A DNA stretch of 64,000 bases, from positions 1 to 64,000 of IMG/VR virus record IMGVR_UViG_3300028833_000109, one strand, 5' to 3'. A program made the translations under genes and the position numbers. The notes beneath the pieces are model-generated. The model was given only the letters and a program-made list of their open reading frames with translations, was not told the DNA's origin and ran no database searches. The stretch comes from a virus (Duplodnaviria; Caudoviricetes). This document shows positions 5,903 through 51,687 of the stretch, piece after piece. Every line of letters starts with the position of its first letter. The first letter of the stretch is position 1.

Positions 5903-6292
5903 TCATAGCCTGTTGTCTAATTGGATGTATAAAGTTGTTAACTGGTTCATGATGTCCTGGTTCTCCCGCTTGAGGTTCTCGATGCGCTCCTGGTTCTGCG
6001 TGAGCCTGCGGGCGAGGTTGACGATGATGTTGCGCACACTTGGCGTTGGCTCGTTGTCGTCGGTGATGTACTTGTCGCCCCTGCCGTGCTTCAGCCAGTC
6101 GGGCGACACGTTTATCGTCTCGCAGATGTGCTTGATGTCGCGCTGGGTGAGTTTCTGCTGCCCCCGCAGCTTCTTGTGCAGGTTGCTTGGGCCTAATCTC
6201 ACCTTTGTAGCGAAGGCCGCTTCCGTTAGGAGGGAGTCGTCTATCAGTTCCCTTATCCTCGGAATGATCTCGTTCGGTTTTAGTGTTTCCAT
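5903..6292 (-). CDS. CI-like HTH repressor
   Basis: XRE-type HTH (EAAFATKVRLGPSNLHK...VSPDWLKHGRG); divergent from the rightward operon. Confidence 0.75.
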   Translation of the reverse strand: METLKPNEIIPRIRELIDDSLLTEAAFATKVRLGPSNLHKKLRGQQKLTQRDIKHICETINVSPDWLKHGRGDKYITDDNEPTPSVRNIIVNLARRLTQNQERIENLKRENQDIMNQLTTLYIQLDNRL

Positions 6293-6357
6293 AATCTTGC
6301 GTCTTTGGTTAGGTACAATTAAAAATTGTTAAAATCAACACTTTTTGCTTTGTATTT

Positions 6358-6388
6358 TTTGGTAATACAAATTTTTACCATACCTTTG
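6358..6388 (+). promoter_or_regulatory. Bacteroidota sigma-A promoter (rightward)
   Basis: TTTG (6358) - 19 nt - TACCTTTG (6381) fits the -33/-7 consensus. Confidence 0.6.
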
Positions 6389-6520
6389 TCTGCTGAAAAG
6401 TAAAAACAAAGGCTAGGCGGTTCACGGTAAAAGACCGCAAACAGTGGTAAGCGTCACAAATTTACGGCAAATTAGCCAAACCGCCAAGTCTTTAAGGTGA
6501 ATTTTAGTAAAAAATAATAT

Positions 6521-6745
6521 ATGGTAGCGAATAAAATAGGCGTGGACGACGTGAGGAGAATCGGGAAAGACGGTTCGCTTTCCGTGTGCCTGCCCAGTTA
6601 TGCTGCCTGTGTGTCGGCAAAGAACATCGTGTCTTACGTCAAAAGGGCGTATCCGCGAGAGGACGGGCTGACATACACTTGCAGTATTGATGTCGAGACC
6701 AACACAATCGTCATCAAGACTATCGAGAAGAAAGACAACAACTAA
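6521..6745 (+). CDS. Hypothetical protein (first gene of rightward operon)
   Basis: 74-aa ORF, A-rich start context. Confidence 0.6.
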   Translation: MVANKIGVDDVRRIGKDGSLSVCLPSYAACVSAKNIVSYVKRAYPREDGLTYTCSIDVETNTIVIKTIEKKDNN

Positions 6746-6754
6746 AAGCGTGAT

Positions 6755-7060
6755 ATGATGAGCACCGAAGAACTGGACATCCTTGCCGCAAAGATTGCGG
6801 AGCATCTTATGAGTGACGACAGGTTCGTGGAGAAGATGGCGAAAGCCATGAGCCACAAACAGGTCAAGAGGCTCGTGTCAACCAAGGAGGCCGCAGCGAT
6901 GCTCGGCATATCGGCGATGCAGTTGTACCACATCAAGGACGACGAGAACGGTGTGCCGAGGTTCTCCTATATCAAGACTGGGAGCGCGAAGCAGGCCACG
7001 CTGAAGTTCGATTCATCTAAGCTGATGAGGGAATACGAGCGTTACATAGCGACACGCTAA
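6755..7060 (+). CDS. Excisionase-like HTH protein
   Basis: LVSTKEAAAMLGIS..LY MerR/Xis-like HTH. Confidence 0.7.
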   Translation: MMSTEELDILAAKIAEHLMSDDRFVEKMAKAMSHKQVKRLVSTKEAAAMLGISAMQLYHIKDDENGVPRFSYIKTGSAKQATLKFDSSKLMREYERYIATR

Positions 7061-7346
7061 GTATTGCTCAAAGACATAGCGGCAGGCTTGTCGGGGCAAC
7101 GTGATTGTCCCAGTTGCGAGGAAGAACCTTACGCATAGCCGTCAGACCGCACCCCGTGACGAGCGGGTTGACGTAGCCCTTGCGTCCCGGTGAAATGAGT
7201 AGCCGAAGGGGTTGGCGGGAGAAAGCCGCCTATACTGAAAGTGGAGTGATCCACCGTGAAGAAAAGTTGAAGGCTAAGTAATTCTTCTTGATAGCCGTGG
7301 AGTAGGTCTCCTGTAAAAGAAGTCGGTAGCGCGGCTCGCGGCACTT

Positions 7347-7421
7347 AGGGAGTTAGCTCGCTTGGAAAGAGCGCTTGCTATGATTTGCAAGAGGTTGGCG
7401 GTTCGAGTCCGTCACTCCCTA
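7347..7421 (+). tRNA. tRNA with non-canonical 8-nt anticodon loop (identity undetermined)
   Basis: Acceptor AGGGAGT/ACTCCCT, D GCTC/GAGC, AC stem CTTGC/GCAAG with loop TATGATTT, T-arm GGCGG-TTCGAGT-CCGTC. Confidence 0.65.
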
Positions 7422-8448: not shown

Positions 8449-10254
8449 ATGAAATACGATAAAAGTAATCCGCTGAGAGTTTTTGAGGCCTTTGGTGGCT
8501 ATGGTTCGCAATCGCTTGCCTTGCAACGTCTCAAAAACGACTATCCGCAGTTCGATTTTAAGGTCGTCGGATATTCCGATATTGAACCAGCAGCAATCAA
8601 GGCATACATGGCTTTACACGAAGGAGAGGGTGTTAAAAATTACGGAGACATTTGCGAAATAGACTGGTCGCAAACGCCTGATTTTGACTTGTTCACCTAC
8701 TCATTTCCATGTTTTTGTGCCGACACACTCGTTTTAACAAGTACTGGATATAAGAAGATTCAGGATGTTGAAATTGGGGATGAGGTTATGACTCACCAAA
8801 ACAGGTATCGCGCAGTGACCACAACGATGCAACGCGACTATAGCGGAATCATGGTTCGGTTGCGGGGTATGGGTATGGATGAAATATACTGCACCGCAGA
8901 ACATCCGTTTTACATAAGAAGGCGGTATCGAAAAGGTCACAAACAAGTGCGTTGTTTCACGACTCCAGAATGGGTTAAGGCAAAAGACATCAACAAGAAT
9001 TGCTTCCTTGGATATGCGATAAACACAAAATCCGAACTCCCAAAATGGGGCGGCTCTATTGACAACCGATGGGGTCACGGACGAAATGTCAACCACCTTG
9101 ATTGTCTTTTTAAAAACAGGTGGTTCTGGTATGTCATGGGAAGATATGTAGGCGACGGATGGAAAGTCGCAAGCAAGACAGGTAATCGCATCGTTATCTG
9201 CTGTAGTGAGCGCAATAAATCCTCCTTGGAAAACGCTCTTCAAGAGTGTGGTTTTCATTTTGTGACAAGTGAGGAAAGAACGGTTACGAAAATCCATATC
9301 TGCATGAACGAGTTGTATGACTTTGTTGAGCGATATGGATATACCGCAAAAGGGAAACATATTGATGCTGAAACACTAAACTTGCCAGTTGATTTGCTTG
9401 GTGGTTTTCTTGATGGTTATGTTGATAGCGATGGTTGCAATATAGATAAGTATTACAAAGTAACATCGATCAGCAGAGGATTATGTTACGGCATCGCACA
9501 ATGCGTTGCGAAGGTACACCATCGTCCATTTGCCCTGTATCACACACCAAGAAGACCGAAAACCACCATAGAGGGTCGAGAGGTAAACCAGCACGATTCT
9601 TATGAGGTGGTATGGAAATTGTCAAACGACAAGCAGGACAAGGCTTTTTATGAAGATGGATATATTTGGTACCCACTAAACAAAGAACCAGAACTCATTG
9701 AAGATAATCTTCCAGTATTTAACTTGTCGGTCGATGAGGACGAGAGTTACACAGCAAACGGAGCAATAGCGCATAATTGCCAAGACATCAGCAATGCTGG
9801 TGTCCAGCGAGGTTTTGAGAAAGGTTCAAACACAAGATCATCCTTGCTTTGGGAGTGTGAAAGAGCCATTGAGTACAAGCGCCCGAAATATCTCCTAATG
9901 GAGAATGTCAAGGCTTTAACCCAAAAGAAATTCATGCCCGATTTTAATAAATGGCTGCAACTGTTAGAATCTTACGGCTATGTGAACTCTTGGTCAGTGC
10001 TCAACTCAAAGAATTTCGGAGTTCCGCAGAACAGAGAGAGAGTATTCTGCGTGTCTATCCGTGATGATGGAGATAATCCGAAATATCATTTTCCAAACCC
10101 ATTCCCACTTGAAATCTGCCTTGCTGACATATTAGAGGAAGAGGTTGACGAAAAGTATTTCCTTCGTGATGAAATGCTTGCAAGGTTTTGTGAGAAATCT
10201 CAAGACAATGATCCAGAGCAAAAAGAAATCGACTTTGAGGAGTGGCTCGTGTAG
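8449..10254 (+). CDS. C5-cytosine DNA methyltransferase, N-terminal part (motifs I-VIII), intein-containing
   Basis: FEAFGGYG (I), GDI, SFP|CQD (IV), ENV (VI), QNRER (VIII); motifs IX-X absent. Confidence 0.9.
   Translation: MKYDKSNPLRVFEAFGGYGSQSLALQRLKNDYPQFDFKVVGYSDIEPAAIKAYMALHEGEGVKNYGDICEIDWSQTPDFDLFTYSFPCFCADTLVLTSTGYKKIQDVEIGDEVMTHQNRYRAVTTTMQRDYSGIMVRLRGMGMDEIYCTAEHPFYIRRRYRKGHKQVRCFTTPEWVKAKDINKNCFLGYAINTKSELPKWGGSIDNRWGHGRNVNHLDCLFKNRWFWYVMGRYVGDGWKVASKTGNRIVICCSERNKSSLENALQECGFHFVTSEERTVTKIHICMNELYDFVERYGYTAKGKHIDAETLNLPVDLLGGFLDGYVDSDGCNIDKYYKVTSISRGLCYGIAQCVAKVHHRPFALYHTPRRPKTTIEGREVNQHDSYEVVWKLSNDKQDKAFYEDGYIWYPLNKEPELIEDNLPVFNLSVDEDESYTANGAIAHNCQDISNAGVQRGFEKGSNTRSSLLWECERAIEYKRPKYLLMENVKALTQKKFMPDFNKWLQLLESYGYVNSWSVLNSKNFGVPQNRERVFCVSIRDDGDNPKYHFPNPFPLEICLADILEEEVDEKYFLRDEMLARFCEKSQDNDPEQKEIDFEEWLV
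8710..9777 (+). mobile_element. Intein with LAGLIDADG homing endonuclease in the MTase PC motif
   Basis: CFCADT start, TAEHPF block B, GRYVGDG and GFLDGYVDSDG, AHN end followed by the catalytic Cys; 356 aa. Confidence 0.9.
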
Positions 10255-10379
10255 AGATTGTCGGAAAAGTTTCATCGTCGCAGGATGCGGTAGTCGTTAG
10301 TCGGGGGGGGGTGTCGCCATGCCATACAGCAGGACACGGCAACTGTCCGAAAGTGCTCGTGGTATGCGAAACCGCATAA
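10242..10379 (+). CDS. TRD-like mini-ORF 1 (45 aa, G9 tract 10303-10311, in frame)
   Basis: VARVEIVGKVSSSQDAVVVSRGGVSPCHTAGHGNCPKVLVVCETA; GTG start overlaps the MTase-N stop. Confidence 0.55.
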   Translation: MARVEIVGKVSSSQDAVVVSRGGVSPCHTAGHGNCPKVLVVCETA

Positions 10380-10497
10380 CACCGACAAAGACGGATGCTG
10401 TTACACATTAAACACCAGATACGAATTTGCCGCAATCAGTGACTACACTCATGGCAAGCACTGCAAAACCTGCGTTATGCTGATAAATGAAACATAG
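10364..10497 (+). pseudogene. TRD-like mini-ORF 2 (1-nt frameshift near start)
   Basis: One extra A in ATAAC gives MRNRINTDKDGCCYTLNTRYEFAAISDYTHGKHCKTCVMLINET. Confidence 0.45.
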
Positions 10498-10689
10498 CGA
10501 AGTGACCATTCACATCCCGCAAGCGACAAAACTTGGTTATATAGAATGTCCGGTTTGGGGCGTGTTCGACTGGAATTATCCGACAAGCAAACTGCGAAGG
10601 GGCAGAGTGCAAGACGGGGGGGTACGACACCTGCCTTGACTTGCGCGTCAAACGAGATTTATTACATAACCGCTTATGAAACAAAGTGA
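10487..10689 (+). pseudogene. TRD-like mini-ORF 3 (G7 tract 10616-10622, currently out of frame)
   Basis: QATKLGYIEC...YPTSKLRRGRVQDGG stops at 10639; G8 restores GTTPALTCASNEIYYITAYETK. Confidence 0.6.
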
Positions 10690-10834
10690 GCGACAAATCG
10701 CTCTTCCGACCGCAGGTGACGGCTGTTCTTTCGCCATCACCGCATCTTACGGGGGGGGTCACGGGCCGCAGAACTACCAAAGCGGTGGTCATTATCCAAA
10801 ACAAGGGATTGGAGTGATATATGAAACGAGTTGA
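10676..10834 (+). CDS. TRD-like mini-ORF 4 (52 aa, G8 tract 10751-10758, in frame)
   Basis: MKQSERQIALPTAGDGCSFAITASYGGGHGPQNYQSGGHYPKQGIGVIYETS. Confidence 0.6.
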   Translation: MKQSERQIALPTAGDGCSFAITASYGGGHGPQNYQSGGHYPKQGIGVIYETS

Positions 10835-11015
10835 TGTCCGTGCTGTCGGCAGAGAGCGCACAAGAGCAGAGAAACTGCGAAGACGGAAATTCGGAGACAA
10901 AGGCGCAAAATTCTCCATTGGAAAGCGTGGCGTATTGTTAGGGGGGGTAATCGGATGTATCACAACCATCGCAACAAAAGATAACAGAGTGGCTGAAATT
11001 TATGAAACGGATTAA
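10821..11015 (+). CDS. TRD-like mini-ORF 5 (64 aa, G7 tract 10941-10947, in frame)
   Basis: ORF track; ends IGCITTIATKDNRVAEIYETD. Confidence 0.6.
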   Translation: MKRVDVRAVGRERTRAEKLRRRKFGDKGAKFSIGKRGVLLGGVIGCITTIATKDNRVAEIYETD

Positions 11016-11145
11016 AGTCCTTGCGGATTTCAACGGATATTTACCCCCCGAACGGCAATTTTACATCGGTACGATTACCGAGCAGTTCGGCAACATCGCA
11101 TTAAGGTATGGCTGGAAAATCATAGAGGTTTATGAAAGAGATTAG
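11002..11145 (+). CDS. TRD-like mini-ORF 6 (47 aa, C6 tract 11044-11049, in frame)
   Basis: MKRIKVLADFNGYLPPERQFYIGTITEQFGNIALRYGWKIIEVYERD. Confidence 0.6.
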   Translation: MKRIKVLADFNGYLPPERQFYIGTITEQFGNIALRYGWKIIEVYERD

Positions 11146-11320
11146 ACTAAGATGTACAAATGGAATAAATCTTAGCAAGACATATTCCGCAAGTATAAGA
11201 GGGGGGGGGCGAGGTTTCCCTGATGCTATGGCTCTTGAACCGCACAGCAACGAGGTTACACCGACAATAAAGACAATAACTGGATTTATCGTAATAGTAC
11301 AAATATATGAGCAAGATTAA
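11132..11320 (+). CDS. TRD-like mini-ORF 7 (62 aa, G9 tract 11201-11209, in frame)
   Basis: ORF track; ends VTPTIKTITGFIVIVQIYEQD. Confidence 0.6.
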   Translation: MKEIRLRCTNGINLSKTYSASIRGGGRGFPDAMALEPHSNEVTPTIKTITGFIVIVQIYEQD

Positions 11321-11849
11321 ACGAGATTTCCATACCGAGGTTCGTGTCGTGTATAGGGCATATCGGAAACTATTCGGCATAGAGAGAACTCAGGATGAAT
11401 GCTTGAAATTGTTCAAGATCATCTTCCCCGAACAATACAAGGCAAAGAACAGCGGCAGTCCTACCCGATTAATTCCTGTCGAAAGAATGGAACAAATCAA
11501 ACGGCTTTTCCGTTCGTGGAAGCCAGAAGGTAGGCTTCGTGAAATGTGCGAGCATGTCGTTGGTCAGTTGGCACAGCCGATGGAGAGAAAGAAATTCATC
11601 GAGTTTTGCGATGACATTCTGCCAGTGGCAATGCGCATCAGGAAACTAACACCGAAAGAATGTTTCCGATTGCAGGATGTCGATGATGCGGACATTGCCA
11701 CTATCCAGTCGTGCGGTGTGAGCAATTCGGCTCAATACAAACTTGCCGGGAACAGCATTACCGTTGCGCCGTTGTATTTCATTTTTAAGAATCTTTTCAT
11801 TGAGACCGAGCAGAAACCCGCTCCTGGAACCCAACTAACACTATTCTAA
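11307..11849 (+). CDS. C5 DNA methyltransferase, C-terminal part (motifs IX-X)
   Basis: IRKLTPKECFRLQ (IX) and QYKLAGNSITV (X). Confidence 0.85.
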   Translation: MSKIKRDFHTEVRVVYRAYRKLFGIERTQDECLKLFKIIFPEQYKAKNSGSPTRLIPVERMEQIKRLFRSWKPEGRLREMCEHVVGQLAQPMERKKFIEFCDDILPVAMRIRKLTPKECFRLQDVDDADIATIQSCGVSNSAQYKLAGNSITVAPLYFIFKNLFIETEQKPAPGTQLTLF

Positions 11850-49137: not shown

Positions 49138-49762
49138 TATATCCAGTCTAATGTTGTTTGGTTGTAGTCGGATTTACGCCAACAAAACCATGCGTAACTG
49201 ACTGCACTCCCGCCGTGTTTACGCATATAGTCGAAGTCAGCGTTTTTTGCGCATAAGACCCTCTCGATGCACTGTAAAACCTTGACGGGGGGGTAGTTAC
49301 GAATATCTTGTCATACCTTCCCTTGCTCTCAAGGAACGTCGTTTTGAGGAAAAGGCAGACCAGCGAGCCTTCGGGAACGAGTTCGAGCGAGTGCAAGACC
49401 CAAGGAGTAACCACGGAATATGGCGGGTTTGTCACGATGGCGAAGTCGCCCTCAAACGGCGGTTCGGTCATCGCAAAGAAGTCCTGCACATCGCCGTAGC
49501 CTCGGTCGATGAGGTCGTAGGACTTCACCTCATGACCGAGTTCGGTCAATCGTTTGGATAGGCAGCCAGTGCCGCAGGCAGGTTCAAGTATCTGCTTCGG
49601 CAGGTCGATTTTCTTCTTCAAGAGGTCGATGGCAGACCAGTGGGTAGCGTAGAAATCGTGTTTCTCACGTTCTTTGTCGGTGTGGTTGCTTGCGCCGAGC
49701 ATCTTGAAGATGCTGTTACCATTGCCAGTCCAGTCTTTGTTTTTTGTCATTGATTTCGTCAT
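49137..49762 (-). pseudogene. Amino (likely N6-adenine) DNA methyltransferase, frameshifted at a C7 tract
   Basis: DFYAT, EPACGTG, TNPPY; C8 at 49287-49293 restores ..PPVKVLQCIERVLCAKNADF..GSAVSYAWFCW..DWI ending TAATG at 49137. Confidence 0.8.
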
Positions 49763-50510
49763 TTATGCGTTTCTTTGCGATTTCGTGATATTCTGGCTCC
49801 TTTTCTATTCCGATGAAGTGTCGGTTTTCCCTTATTGCTGCGACCAGAGTGGAGCCAGAGCCAGCGCAGAAGTCGAGTATTACCCCCCCCGCATCGGTGT
49901 AAGTCCTTATTAACCAACTCATTAGGTTGATTGGTTTTTCGGTTGGATGGAACGATTTGCCAGTCGGATGGAGTTTAGCGACGCTTATGATGCTTGTCGG
50001 GTATTTCTCGTCACTGATGATTGTCGGCGTTTCGATGAAATTTCCGTAGCATCGGTTCTGCGTCGGTTTCTCCATGTTGCCCTTTGAGTGGTTGCGCCTG
50101 TGCGGTTCGCACTTGACCATCTGCGGGTTGTATGTCGGTTGCTTGCGGTAGAACACAGCAATATCCTCATGTTGCCGCAAAGGTGCGCGTTTAGCGTTTA
50201 GAAAACCTGTTTTCAGTTTCTTGTCCCACACAAGCGAGTAGCGGTAGTGTTTCTCGTTTGAGAGGATGAGTTTAGCGGTGAACACTCCTTGACCAAACAA
50301 CACGATTGCCCCGTTGTCCTTGATGATGCGCTCTAACTGCTTCCACATTGAAGCAAGCGGGATAACGCTATCCCACTTTGCGCTTGTGTTGCCTTTATTC
50401 AAGCATCCAAATGGCGGATCGCAGATGATTGCGTCAATGCTCTTGTCGGGTATTGACGGCATGATGTCGAGGCAATCGCCGAGGATTATTTGGTCAAGTT
50501 CAATTTGCAT
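49716..50510 (-). CDS. N4/N6 DNA methyltransferase (beta class) with in-frame G8 tract
   Basis: GDCL, DPPF, HPTEKP, ILDFCAGSGST; tract 49883-49890. Confidence 0.9.
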   Translation of the reverse strand: MQIELDQIILGDCLDIMPSIPDKSIDAIICDPPFGCLNKGNTSAKWDSVIPLASMWKQLERIIKDNGAIVLFGQGVFTAKLILSNEKHYRYSLVWDKKLKTGFLNAKRAPLRQHEDIAVFYRKQPTYNPQMVKCEPHRRNHSKGNMEKPTQNRCYGNFIETPTIISDEKYPTSIISVAKLHPTGKSFHPTEKPINLMSWLIRTYTDAGGVILDFCAGSGSTLVAAIRENRHFIGIEKEPEYHEIAKKRINDEINDKKQRLDWQW

Positions 50511-51687
50511 ATTTCCAAACGTAGCCATAAGCGGAATGTGTTCTGCCAGCAAGATTATTCCCGATGCAGGTCGTAACACCTTTTCCGAGTGTGCGGATTG
50601 CATCTTTAATAGAGTTGTGTGTTGCCACATATTCACCATCAAAGGTAAATTGATTTATCTTTCGGGTTGCATCGGTTTTGAATGGTTCGGGTGCTGTTTC
50701 GCCCTTGTATCTCCAAATAAAACCATAGGCCGTCTTGAGGTTACCTTTGCAGCAATTTGTTATATCTGAGCATAGTTTTTTACCAAAAGAAATTGCCGCA
50801 TCTGTTGCACTTGGAAATTCCTTGACAAACTCACCGTCTTTTGTGTATTGGCATACAGGTTTTGCCCCTTTCCCTTTGAGGTCTGGTCTTGGCCCCTTGC
50901 GTCCCTTTGGGATATACTCATTCTCCTTTTGTTCAACAATAAACCTAAGTCCATTAACCGTTACTACTCCGTCAATCTTTGGTATTCTGGATAACATGTG
51001 CCTATCAAAACCGTTTTCGCGCCCTGCTTCTGATACGCTCTTGTATCGCTTTACCTCGTTGTTGTTGTCGTCAAGAAGTATGACATATTTTTGGTGGGAC
51101 TTCGGTTTGTCTTCTTCGTATTTGAAGATGCTGTTGTAGCTAAACACATAACCATGCGCTGTTTTACTTTTACCATTTAAGCAGTCACCAATATCATAGC
51201 CAATCGACTCTTCAAGTTGCTTGACCCCACATTGATGAGCACAAACAAGGCTACCATCCATATTGAATTGGAAAATAGTCTTATGCTTGCCTTCAAGGTT
51301 CTTTCGCAAAGTTGCCTTTCGTTTTGCGTTTGCACTTCCGTATGAGTTATTGTACGAGTAATCACAACGCTCCAGATTAGAAAGTACAGAGTTTGATCTA
51401 TCCTCATCAATGTGGTTTACACAGGGTAAGCCGTATGGATTTGGAATAAACGCATCTGCAATCAGTTTATGAACGCAGATGGTTTTCACAACTCCATTTT
51501 TTGAAAGATTTATATCAGGATAACCAGTTTGCTTGGAAATTCTGTTCTTCAAAATCCTTTCTTCGTAGAGCCTTTTTCTTCCCTTTGAGTCTGTGCTAAT
51601 GCGTGACAATCTTTTAACCCTGCCAAGCGAACTAATCTCGTACAAACCTTCATAGCCAACAACAGGCTTCCAAATTTCGTTTTCCAT
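50500..51687 (-). CDS. NUMOD4-HNH homing endonuclease with NUMOD1 repeats
   Basis: EIWKPVVGYEGLYEISSLGRV, VNHIDE.R.N....NLE, repeated KTAYG..W. Confidence 0.88.
   Translation of the reverse strand: MENEIWKPVVGYEGLYEISSLGRVKRLSRISTDSKGRKRLYEERILKNRISKQTGYPDINLSKNGVVKTICVHKLIADAFIPNPYGLPCVNHIDEDRSNSVLSNLERCDYSYNNSYGSANAKRKATLRKNLEGKHKTIFQFNMDGSLVCAHQCGVKQLEESIGYDIGDCLNGKSKTAHGYVFSYNSIFKYEEDKPKSHQKYVILLDDNNNEVKRYKSVSEAGRENGFDRHMLSRIPKIDGVVTVNGLRFIVEQKENEYIPKGRKGPRPDLKGKGAKPVCQYTKDGEFVKEFPSATDAAISFGKKLCSDITNCCKGNLKTAYGFIWRYKGETAPEPFKTDATRKINQFTFDGEYVATHNSIKDAIRTLGKGVTTCIGNNLAGRTHSAYGYVWKYAN

Follow-up and report, generated by a model that had tools for sequence, protein, structure and literature searches.

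We analyzed a 64,000-nucleotide (nt) window, the first 64 kb of a 96-kb virus record (IMGVR_UViG_3300028833_000109), and identified within it a DNA methyltransferase (MTase) locus at positions 8449 to 11849, all of whose features lie on the plus strand. The two halves of a cytosine-5 (C5) MTase are encoded here by separate open reading frames (ORFs), and between these N and C cores lies ~1 kb (1053 nt) of mini-ORFs of 42-67 amino acids (aa), six or seven modules in all, that encode target recognition domains (TRDs). Together, these parts probably constitute an orphan multispecific cytosine-5 DNA methyltransferase that is encoded as a kit: an N core, a C core, and a set of switchable TRD mini-genes. 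We directly observe the anatomy of the locus, selection on its reading frames and start codons, and polymorphism of its homopolymer tracts among relatives. The phage population can probably vary which DNA sequences are protected from host restriction enzymes.

The N core (8449..10254) contains C5 MTase motifs I-VIII and matches profile positions 2-233 of PF00145 (E = 6e-45). Its start is likely the ATG at 8449, and the longest ORF begins at GTG 8395. The C core (11307..11849, 180 aa) matches PF00145 profile positions 269-322 and contains motifs IX (RKLTPKEC) and X (GNSITV); both halves score above the Pfam cut-off. Motifs I, IV, VI, VIII, IX, and X read FGGYGS, FPCQDIS (after removal of an intein between P and C), LMENVKAL, QNRERVF, RKLTPKECFRLQ, and AGNSITV, respectively. 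The coordinates and profile matches thus agree with an original prediction made from the nucleotide letters, which had placed the end of motifs I-VIII at 10254 and motifs IX-X in their own ORF from 11307. No TRD is in frame with either ORF, and the locus is accordingly not a single-chain C5 MTase. Stand-alone C cores of ~180 aa form a family of at least 183 clusters (47-97% identity, full coverage).

Between the cores, we defined the following modules. M1 (10242..10379, 45 aa) starts at a GTG and, in its present state, ends in ...VSPCHTAGHGNCPKVLVVCETA; relative L125 shows the same state. Within M1, tract 1 (G9, 10303..10311) is a predicted three-way frame switch leading to the M1 end, the M2 end, or a nonsense frame. 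M2 (10312..10497) is an alternative TRD C-terminal half in frame 0 (...DGCCYTLNTRYE...VMLINET-stop) with no start of its own, and would be read only if tract 1 were G8. M3 (10487..10689) is OFF: its N-terminal half occupies frame 1 up to a G7 tract (10616-10622) and its C-terminal half (TTPALTCASNEIYYITAYETK) occupies frame 0, such that a G8 tract would join the two. The remaining modules are ON: M4 (10676..10834, 52 aa, G8 at 10751-10758), M5 (10821..11015, 64 aa, G7 at 10941-10947), M6 (11002..11145, 47 aa, C6 at 11044-11049), and M7 (11132..11320, 62 aa, G9 at 11201-11209). The current state of the window is therefore M1 ON with M2 hidden, M3 OFF, and M4-M7 ON. The original prediction counted seven modules of 44-67 aa; a chain of TRD mini-ORFs is indeed present, and we count six or seven. 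M2 had been described as a module one base out of frame, and we find that it is instead an alternative C-terminal half reached from the N-terminal half of M1 when tract 1 is G8 rather than G9. M3, predicted to be out of frame at its own tract, is so at G7. Two very short ORFs (10364-10411 and 10451-10486) lie between M1 and M3: the MRNRITPTKTDAVTH ORF overlaps the M1 stop by 16 nt, and the other (MASTAKPALC) ends in TGA-TAA immediately ahead of the M3 ATG. These could represent a ribosome relay, or chance.

The identification of the modules as TRDs, also proposed at the outset, is borne out by single-chain relatives, in which homologs of M3, M4, M5, and M7 are found in frame between motifs VIII and IX or right before motif IX. 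In L021, M3- and M4-type TRDs are consecutive, in frame, and followed by motifs IX-X, and L027 has an M3-type TRD in frame ahead of motif IX. An M5-type TRD is in frame directly ahead of motif IX in P0153, as is an M7-type TRD in P0151, P0153, and P0155. Locus L032 encodes four such TRDs in frame within a single 628-aa ORF, and L028 contains the same gene broken by a G9 in place of a G8. The modules occupy the position of the variable region and contain T-[LIV]-type cores (SPCHT, CYTLN, TPALT, FAITA, GCITT, GTITE, and TPTIK). Single modules matched no family in Pfam or PHROGs, a search of PDB sequences with an in-frame relative aligned only motifs IX-X and not the TRDs, and a word-based search for longer proteins with an M6-type TRD returned only the L101 copy. 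M7-type proteins of 52-84 aa from ~20 diverged clusters align to M7 end to end (36-66% identity).

The modules are connected by a shared junction design. At five junctions (ATG 10676, 10821, 11002, 11132, and 11307), the next ORF begins ahead of the upstream stop, with an overlap of exactly 14 nt through T-ATG-A, and continues in the +1 frame, at precisely the positions first proposed. The M2/M3 junction (ATG 10487, upstream ...INET-stop) follows this design with an overlap of 11 nt, and the N core and M1 overlap by 13 nt with a GTG as the M1 start. Modules end in hydrophobic-x-hydrophobic-(Y/N/D/H)-E-x(-x)-stop, and the next ATG is formed by the last two bases of a NAT codon plus the G of the Glu codon. 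We scored 74 junctions using module ends picked without reference to the ATG, and found that the codon before Glu is TAT in 59, AAT in nine, GAT in four, and CAT in two; NAC codons, TAC included, never occur. Genome-wide, TAT makes up 42% of Tyr codons in this phage. Because the amino acid before Glu varies while the ATG does not, the start codon is what selection keeps.

The junctions also close the other reading frames. The third frame always meets the TGA inside ATGA, and at 24 of 38 junctions from four independent loci the next module's own frame contains a stop at most four codons upstream of the ATG. When synonymous codons were resampled with the amino acids kept, 10.7 such junctions were expected, and none of 200,000 simulations reached 24. 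A ribosome in any frame would therefore be released at the junction, and the next module would start cleanly, insulated from the state of its upstream neighbor. We considered the GGAG/GAGG sequences ahead of some junction ATGs as Shine-Dalgarno sites and rejected them, as the phage does not use such sites (4 of 86 ORFs, against a background of 8%).

Comparison of the window with L101 (84-91% nucleotide identity) revealed 56 synonymous and 19 non-synonymous differences across shared modules. The resulting pN/pS is 0.10 in the module frames and 1.7-1.9 in the other two frames, and the same contrast is seen upstream and downstream of the tracts, OFF alleles included, which indicates that OFF states are recent or transient rather than products of decay. 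Even the C-terminal half of M3, OFF in all relatives compared, is under purifying selection (six synonymous differences, one non-synonymous). With an ATG at every junction, stops in all three frames, and mini-protein ends kept in ~20 diverged clusters, the data support the proposal that the modules are separate translation units.

The six in-module tracts were found with the positions and lengths originally listed. Only three other G/C runs of at least 6 nt occur in the remaining 63 kb, and from the run counts we calculated a chance of ~2e-11 of finding six in this ~1.07 kb. Two of the other three (49287-49293 and 49883-49890) lie in minus-strand DNA MTase genes (49148-49762, phrog_799; 49716-50642, PF01555 N6_N4_Mtase), such that eight of the nine runs in 64 kb are inside MTase genes. 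GGG is the rarest Gly codon in the phage (10% of Gly codons), and Gly-Gly pairs are written GGG-GGG at only 1 of 54 sites in the window's long ORFs (at least 200 codons), compared to five of five G-tract sites in the array. In the diverged relative L023, the homologous Gly-Gly of M5 is written GGC-GGT. The tracts are thus built by codon choice, and are both selected and mutable.

Between near-identical sister genomes, tract length is nearly the only thing that changes. L116 and L118 differ over 1847 aligned nt by one mismatch and three indels, all in tracts (G8/G9, C9/C8, and G7/G9); L122 and L123 differ over 2877 nt by no mismatches and one indel (G7/G8); and L101 and L121 differ over 2085 nt by five mismatches clustered at a contig end and one tract indel (G7/G8). 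Where their sequences overlap, L116, L117, and L120 do not differ at all, and L118 is identical to L119. As these alleles recur exactly in different samples, the variants represent haplotypes rather than random errors. M4 is ON (G8) in the window and L125, and OFF (G7 or G9) in L116, L122, and L101. M5 is ON in the window and L125, and OFF in L122 (G9) and in L101/L121. M6 is ON as C6 in the window and, with one extra Pro, as C9 in L101/L121, and OFF as C8 in L116/L118. M7 is ON as G9 or G7TG; across L116, L118, L122, L123, and L125, the OFF state is G8 or G7. The original prediction held that each module is independently phase-variable. In-coding homopolymers do set the frame, length variants do separate near-identical genomes in these sister lineages, and both ON and OFF states exist for every tract-bearing module shared with close relatives other than M3.

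Tract 1 behaves differently from a simple switch, a point missed in the initial description. The window and L125 carry G9, giving the short TRD end; L116 carries G7, placing it in the third frame; and L122 and the more distant L023 carry G8, giving an 84-aa fusion of the M1 N-terminal half to M2. Over the 40 nt that follow the tract, the window and L023 share 93% identity, against ~60% in the flanks, as would be expected of sequence read in two frames. Judging by these reading frames, tract 1 toggles between two alternative TRD ends, that of M1 or that of M2.

The mini-ORF layout is found in the diverged loci L022, L023, and L034 (43-68% N-core identity) and in the close relatives L101, L116, L122, and L125. 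Arrays reach ~13 modules in L022, at least nine junctions in L023, ~11 junctions in L034, and ~16-20 modules in L101, and the junction design recurs in ~55 junctions of five loci. The layout does not depend on homopolymers: two are present in the ~13 modules of L022, and L034 has none of 7 nt or longer. We clustered modules by DNA similarity into types A-L and compared their content and order across relatives, a check put forward with the original prediction. The order is kept (window, A B C K F L; L122, A B C D E F G H I J K F L). The arrays of L116, L125, and L101 are also collinear, with further gains and losses of whole modules. The window thus carries a short version of an array that has 11-20 modules in its closest relatives. 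Unrelated small ORFs occur in or beside the arrays of relatives, including a 70-aa acidic helical ORF in L116 (2724-2936) and L118, and, in L125 (~265-425), a Cys-rich ORF of 53 aa that separates the N core from M1. In a 91-95% identical phage (L002, IMGVR_UViG_3300028888_000323), a deletion running from motif I (GGYGS) to motif X (QYKLAGNS) removes the entire MTase locus; the join, at 5990-6010, connects window position 8507 to 11728 at a short GGCTCAAT-like match.

The C core contains a conserved ~95-aa helical domain (aa 1-~108) ahead of motif IX, which was overlooked in the first description of the locus. AlphaFold predicts five helices in residues 8-108 (pLDDT ~90). The first 42 residues of the C core are conserved as strongly as motifs IX and X, with V12, R13, Y16, R17, G24, Q29, D30, and E31 invariant, and among all loci that we retrieved the domain is present only at those with the mini-ORF layout. 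We propose that it is likely a docking platform for TRD peptides. Fold searches with the C-core model gave only generic helical-bundle matches and no convincing counterpart in the PDB (the match to Csm2, at Z = 8, is below the level that is meaningful for helical bundles). In P0004, P0018, and P0019, the last TRD is naturally fused in frame to the helical domain, which fixes the order as TRD, helical domain, motif IX. In the predicted fold of P0019, the TRD part of this fusion has a pLDDT below 30, and a complex prediction combining both N-core exteins, the C core, and M4 scored 0.02, with the fold of the partner itself uncertain, a value that weighs neither toward nor away from binding. In a separate observation, a 103-kb record (L017, IMGVR_UViG_3300014928_000001) encodes one ORF (5941-7254) in which motif IX (AIRKLTPFECFRLMG) comes first and motif I (FSGYDSQ) lies downstream of it. 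This ORF resembles a permuted or head-to-tail MTase, and has mini-ORFs of the YE-stop/ATG type upstream.

The N core is interrupted by a 356-aa intein (8710..9777), comprising Hint and LAGLIDADG-like regions and inserted into motif IV after the Pro and just ahead of the catalytic Cys (FP/CQ), that had likewise escaped notice. Its borders (CFCADTLV...AIAHN/C) show Cys1, the block-A CxxxDT, and a C-terminal HN followed by Cys+1, as in inteins. Several weak Hint-type matches were found in Pfam, with only Hint_2 above its curated cut-off and LAGLIDADG_3 below cut-off (E = 0.094). A 92%-identical relative (L122) encodes a 245-aa intein-less N ORF reading ...YSFPCQSISNAG... (FPCQSIS), and this intein-less allele at the same site fixes the intein borders. 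The intein is polymorphic: L113 and L116 carry it and L122 does not. As the catalytic Cys is also the +1 nucleophile of the intein, the N core is expected to require protein splicing for activity.

The sequence of the locus is well corroborated by independent records. The exact C-core protein is encoded on seven other contigs, of which we compared three as DNA and four by ORF spacing. L113 (3950 nt), L114, and L115, from other samples, are 100% identical to the window, including all six tracts, and ORF spacing is unchanged in the other four. The assembly-error alternative raised with the original prediction can thus be set aside, since the stretch is the same base for base in these three. We found no close relative in the phage GenBank collection. 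One C-core homolog is assigned by NCBI to a Prevotella metagenome-assembled genome which, together with the lack of Shine-Dalgarno use, points to a Bacteroidota host; the virus is a phage of the gut or rumen that probably infects Prevotella or another Bacteroidota.

The original interpretation is supported in part: the TRD identity, the separate translation units, and the mutable tracts hold, and translational coupling, plug-in assembly on the cores, and an anti-restriction role would be further features of the model. From these data, we propose the following mechanism. The N core would become active only once the intein is spliced out ahead of the catalytic Cys, and the C core would contribute motifs IX-X behind its conserved helical domain. 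The six or seven TRD mini-genes between them would serve as a cassette array, in which the ATG of each is made by overlap with the C-terminal (Y/N/D/H)-E of the previous module (NAT-GAR giving ATG-A). At each junction the upstream frame stops one or two codons later, the third frame meets the TGA in ATGA, and the next module's frame is usually stopped as well, so that a ribosome of any frame would terminate and the next module would initiate afresh. Each 42-67-aa TRD peptide may then join the N and C cores in trans and confer one target sequence. Slippage in the G/C tracts would turn single TRDs ON or OFF and, at tract 1, swap TRD ends. The purpose may be bet-hedging, with shielding from host restriction enzymes set against vulnerability to methylation-dependent nucleases. 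Whether the free 5-7 kDa TRD peptides are in fact interchangeable subunits of a three-part C5 MTase, docking on the C-core helical domain through their conserved ends (N-terminal M-K/R-x-I/V... and C-terminal hydrophobic-x-hydrophobic-Y-E) and controlled by independent heritable switches that yield a methylome with 2^n states, is in our judgment an evenly balanced question.

In favor of this proposal, C5 MTase pieces split before the TRD can assemble in trans, as in M.AquI and M.SssI fragments (PMC3404938), so fragment assembly is possible. Several observations weigh against it. M.SssI fragments split after the TRD ([1-304]+[304-386]) are inactive, which leaves a cut on both sides of the TRD without precedent (PMC3404938). 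With the last TRD and the C core joined in frame in P0004, P0018, and P0019, some lineages may depend on a covalent link. The only start codon of M1 is a GTG, and the frame of M1 relative to the N ORF is not conserved. In all five relatives compared (including L116, L122, L125, and L101), M3 carries a G7 or G9 tract and never G8, leaving the module OFF throughout. Finally, the tract lengths of the window's own clone are invariant in three further assemblies, with the same spacing in four more records, and tract mutability is thus seen only in sister lineages. The fusions and the failed complementation by M.SssI fragments cut after the TRD (PMC3404938), along with TRD-TRD-IX-X chains (P0153) and the gains and losses of whole modules at junctions among relatives, would also be accounted for if the array were mainly a cassette reservoir, in which a TRD functions only when covalently joined to the core and repeats or tracts bring cassettes into place by deletion, recombination, or frame change (for example, joining the last module in frame with the C core or the first with the N core). 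We regard this explanation as doubtful: the window has no TRD in frame with either core and yet is found in exactly this state in at least four assemblies, internal modules are under purifying selection, and silent cassettes would not need an ATG at every internal junction (74 of 74) or the stops that close each frame.

Other explanations concern how the frames are read. The invariance of the window clone's tracts, and an M3 that is one base away from ON in every relative as though the exact ON state were unnecessary, would be compatible with tracts that act mainly at the RNA level, where transcriptional or ribosomal slippage on G7-G9 would produce, from a single genotype, a fixed mix of full and truncated TRDs and heritable switching would be secondary. 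This is unlikely, as changes in DNA length are the main difference between near-identical sisters, and the same stable haplotypes are seen again in different samples. Slippage is also less documented for G runs than for A/U runs. Very unlikely, in our assessment, is the joining of the modules into one polypeptide by +1 recoding at the T-ATG-A junctions. All junctions do shift +1 and share a TATGAAAC-like sequence, and 1 kb upstream the phage encodes a tRNA (7347-7421, plus strand; Rfam 47.9 bits) with an 8-nt anticodon loop (UAUGAUUU), for which ARAGORN calls a four-base anticodon ('tgat') and in which neither U33 nor purine-37 is at its standard position; this tRNA might assist the shift. However, Glu may be preceded by Y, N, D, or H although the ATG is invariant, the target-frame stops at 24 of 38 junctions leave almost no space to shift, and the stops are not preceded by a shift-prone codon. 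The quadruplets complementary to the tRNA loop (AUCA, UCAU, and CAUA) are absent from the junction consensus, and we rejected a link between this tRNA and the junctions on that ground. Least credible is a decaying multispecific MTase broken by frameshifts, or a homopolymer assembly error, despite the continuous multi-TRD ORF of L032, its G9-broken counterpart in L028, and the loss of the whole locus in L002. Against it stand the identical sequence in independent assemblies, the pN/pS of 0.10, a junction design repeated across five loci, the 183 clusters of stand-alone C cores, and the signs of selection on start codons and hidden stops.

Should free TRD peptides indeed program a common core, this enzyme would represent the first C5 methyltransferase whose specificity subunits are detachable, and would offer a natural, modular means of redirecting cytosine methylation. 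The system would also place contingency loci in a virus rather than a bacterium, with the phage carrying a library of anti-restriction specificities in ~1-3 kb that can be shuffled or toggled. The family is abundant, with its 183 C-core clusters and dozens of phage contigs, and for that reason could influence the host range of phages in the gut and rumen as well as 5-methylcytosine signals in metagenomic methylation data. The system is invisible in routine annotation because gene callers miss most 42-67-aa ORFs. Literature searches, whose coverage excluded most subscription journals, returned no account of TRD mini-genes and none of phage C5 MTases switched by homopolymers.

The multispecific C5 MTases of Bacillus phages (M.SPRI, M.Phi3TI, M.Rho11sI, and M.H2I), described by the Trautner laboratory, combine one core with several TRDs of ~40-60 aa between motifs VIII and IX. 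The locus described here resembles them as a phage-borne orphan C5 MTase with several tandem TRDs in the same position, each thought to give one target. In the Bacillus-phage enzymes all TRDs reside in one polypeptide and there are no switches, whereas here each TRD has its own stop and start codon (an ATG), the core consists of two chains, most modules contain a homopolymer, and arrays in relatives reach 20 modules.

The two-part core is reminiscent of M.AquI, M.EcoHK31I, and the M.SssI fragments, which are split in or near the variable region with motifs I-VIII on the N-terminal piece (PMC3404938). Those pieces assemble in trans, as those of the window locus may also do. Enzymes of the M.AquI type consist of two pieces, active only in combination and with one specificity, and carry the TRD on one of them, the beta chain combining the distal variable region with motifs IX-X; here, neither piece carries a TRD, and the C chain has the helical domain in its place.

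The switching mechanism resembles that of bacterial MTases made phase-variable by simple sequence repeats (phasevarions, and the Type IIG enzyme of Campylobacter; PMC5149525, PMC4889913), where an in-coding homopolymer sets the frame and length variants distinguish near-identical genomes. In the known, bacterial cases, one tract per gene turns a whole enzyme on or off; here the setting is a phage, each specificity module has its own tract, one tract swaps TRD ends, and two further MTase genes of the same phage contain tracts. By analogy only, the proposed TRD peptides recall the HsdS subunit of Type I restriction-modification systems (PMC7672463), a separate, exchangeable specificity subunit that can be phase-variable and reprograms a common methylase core. 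HsdS belongs to an unrelated enzyme class and fold with no sequence relation to these modules, and it varies by inversion, recombination, or a single repeat.

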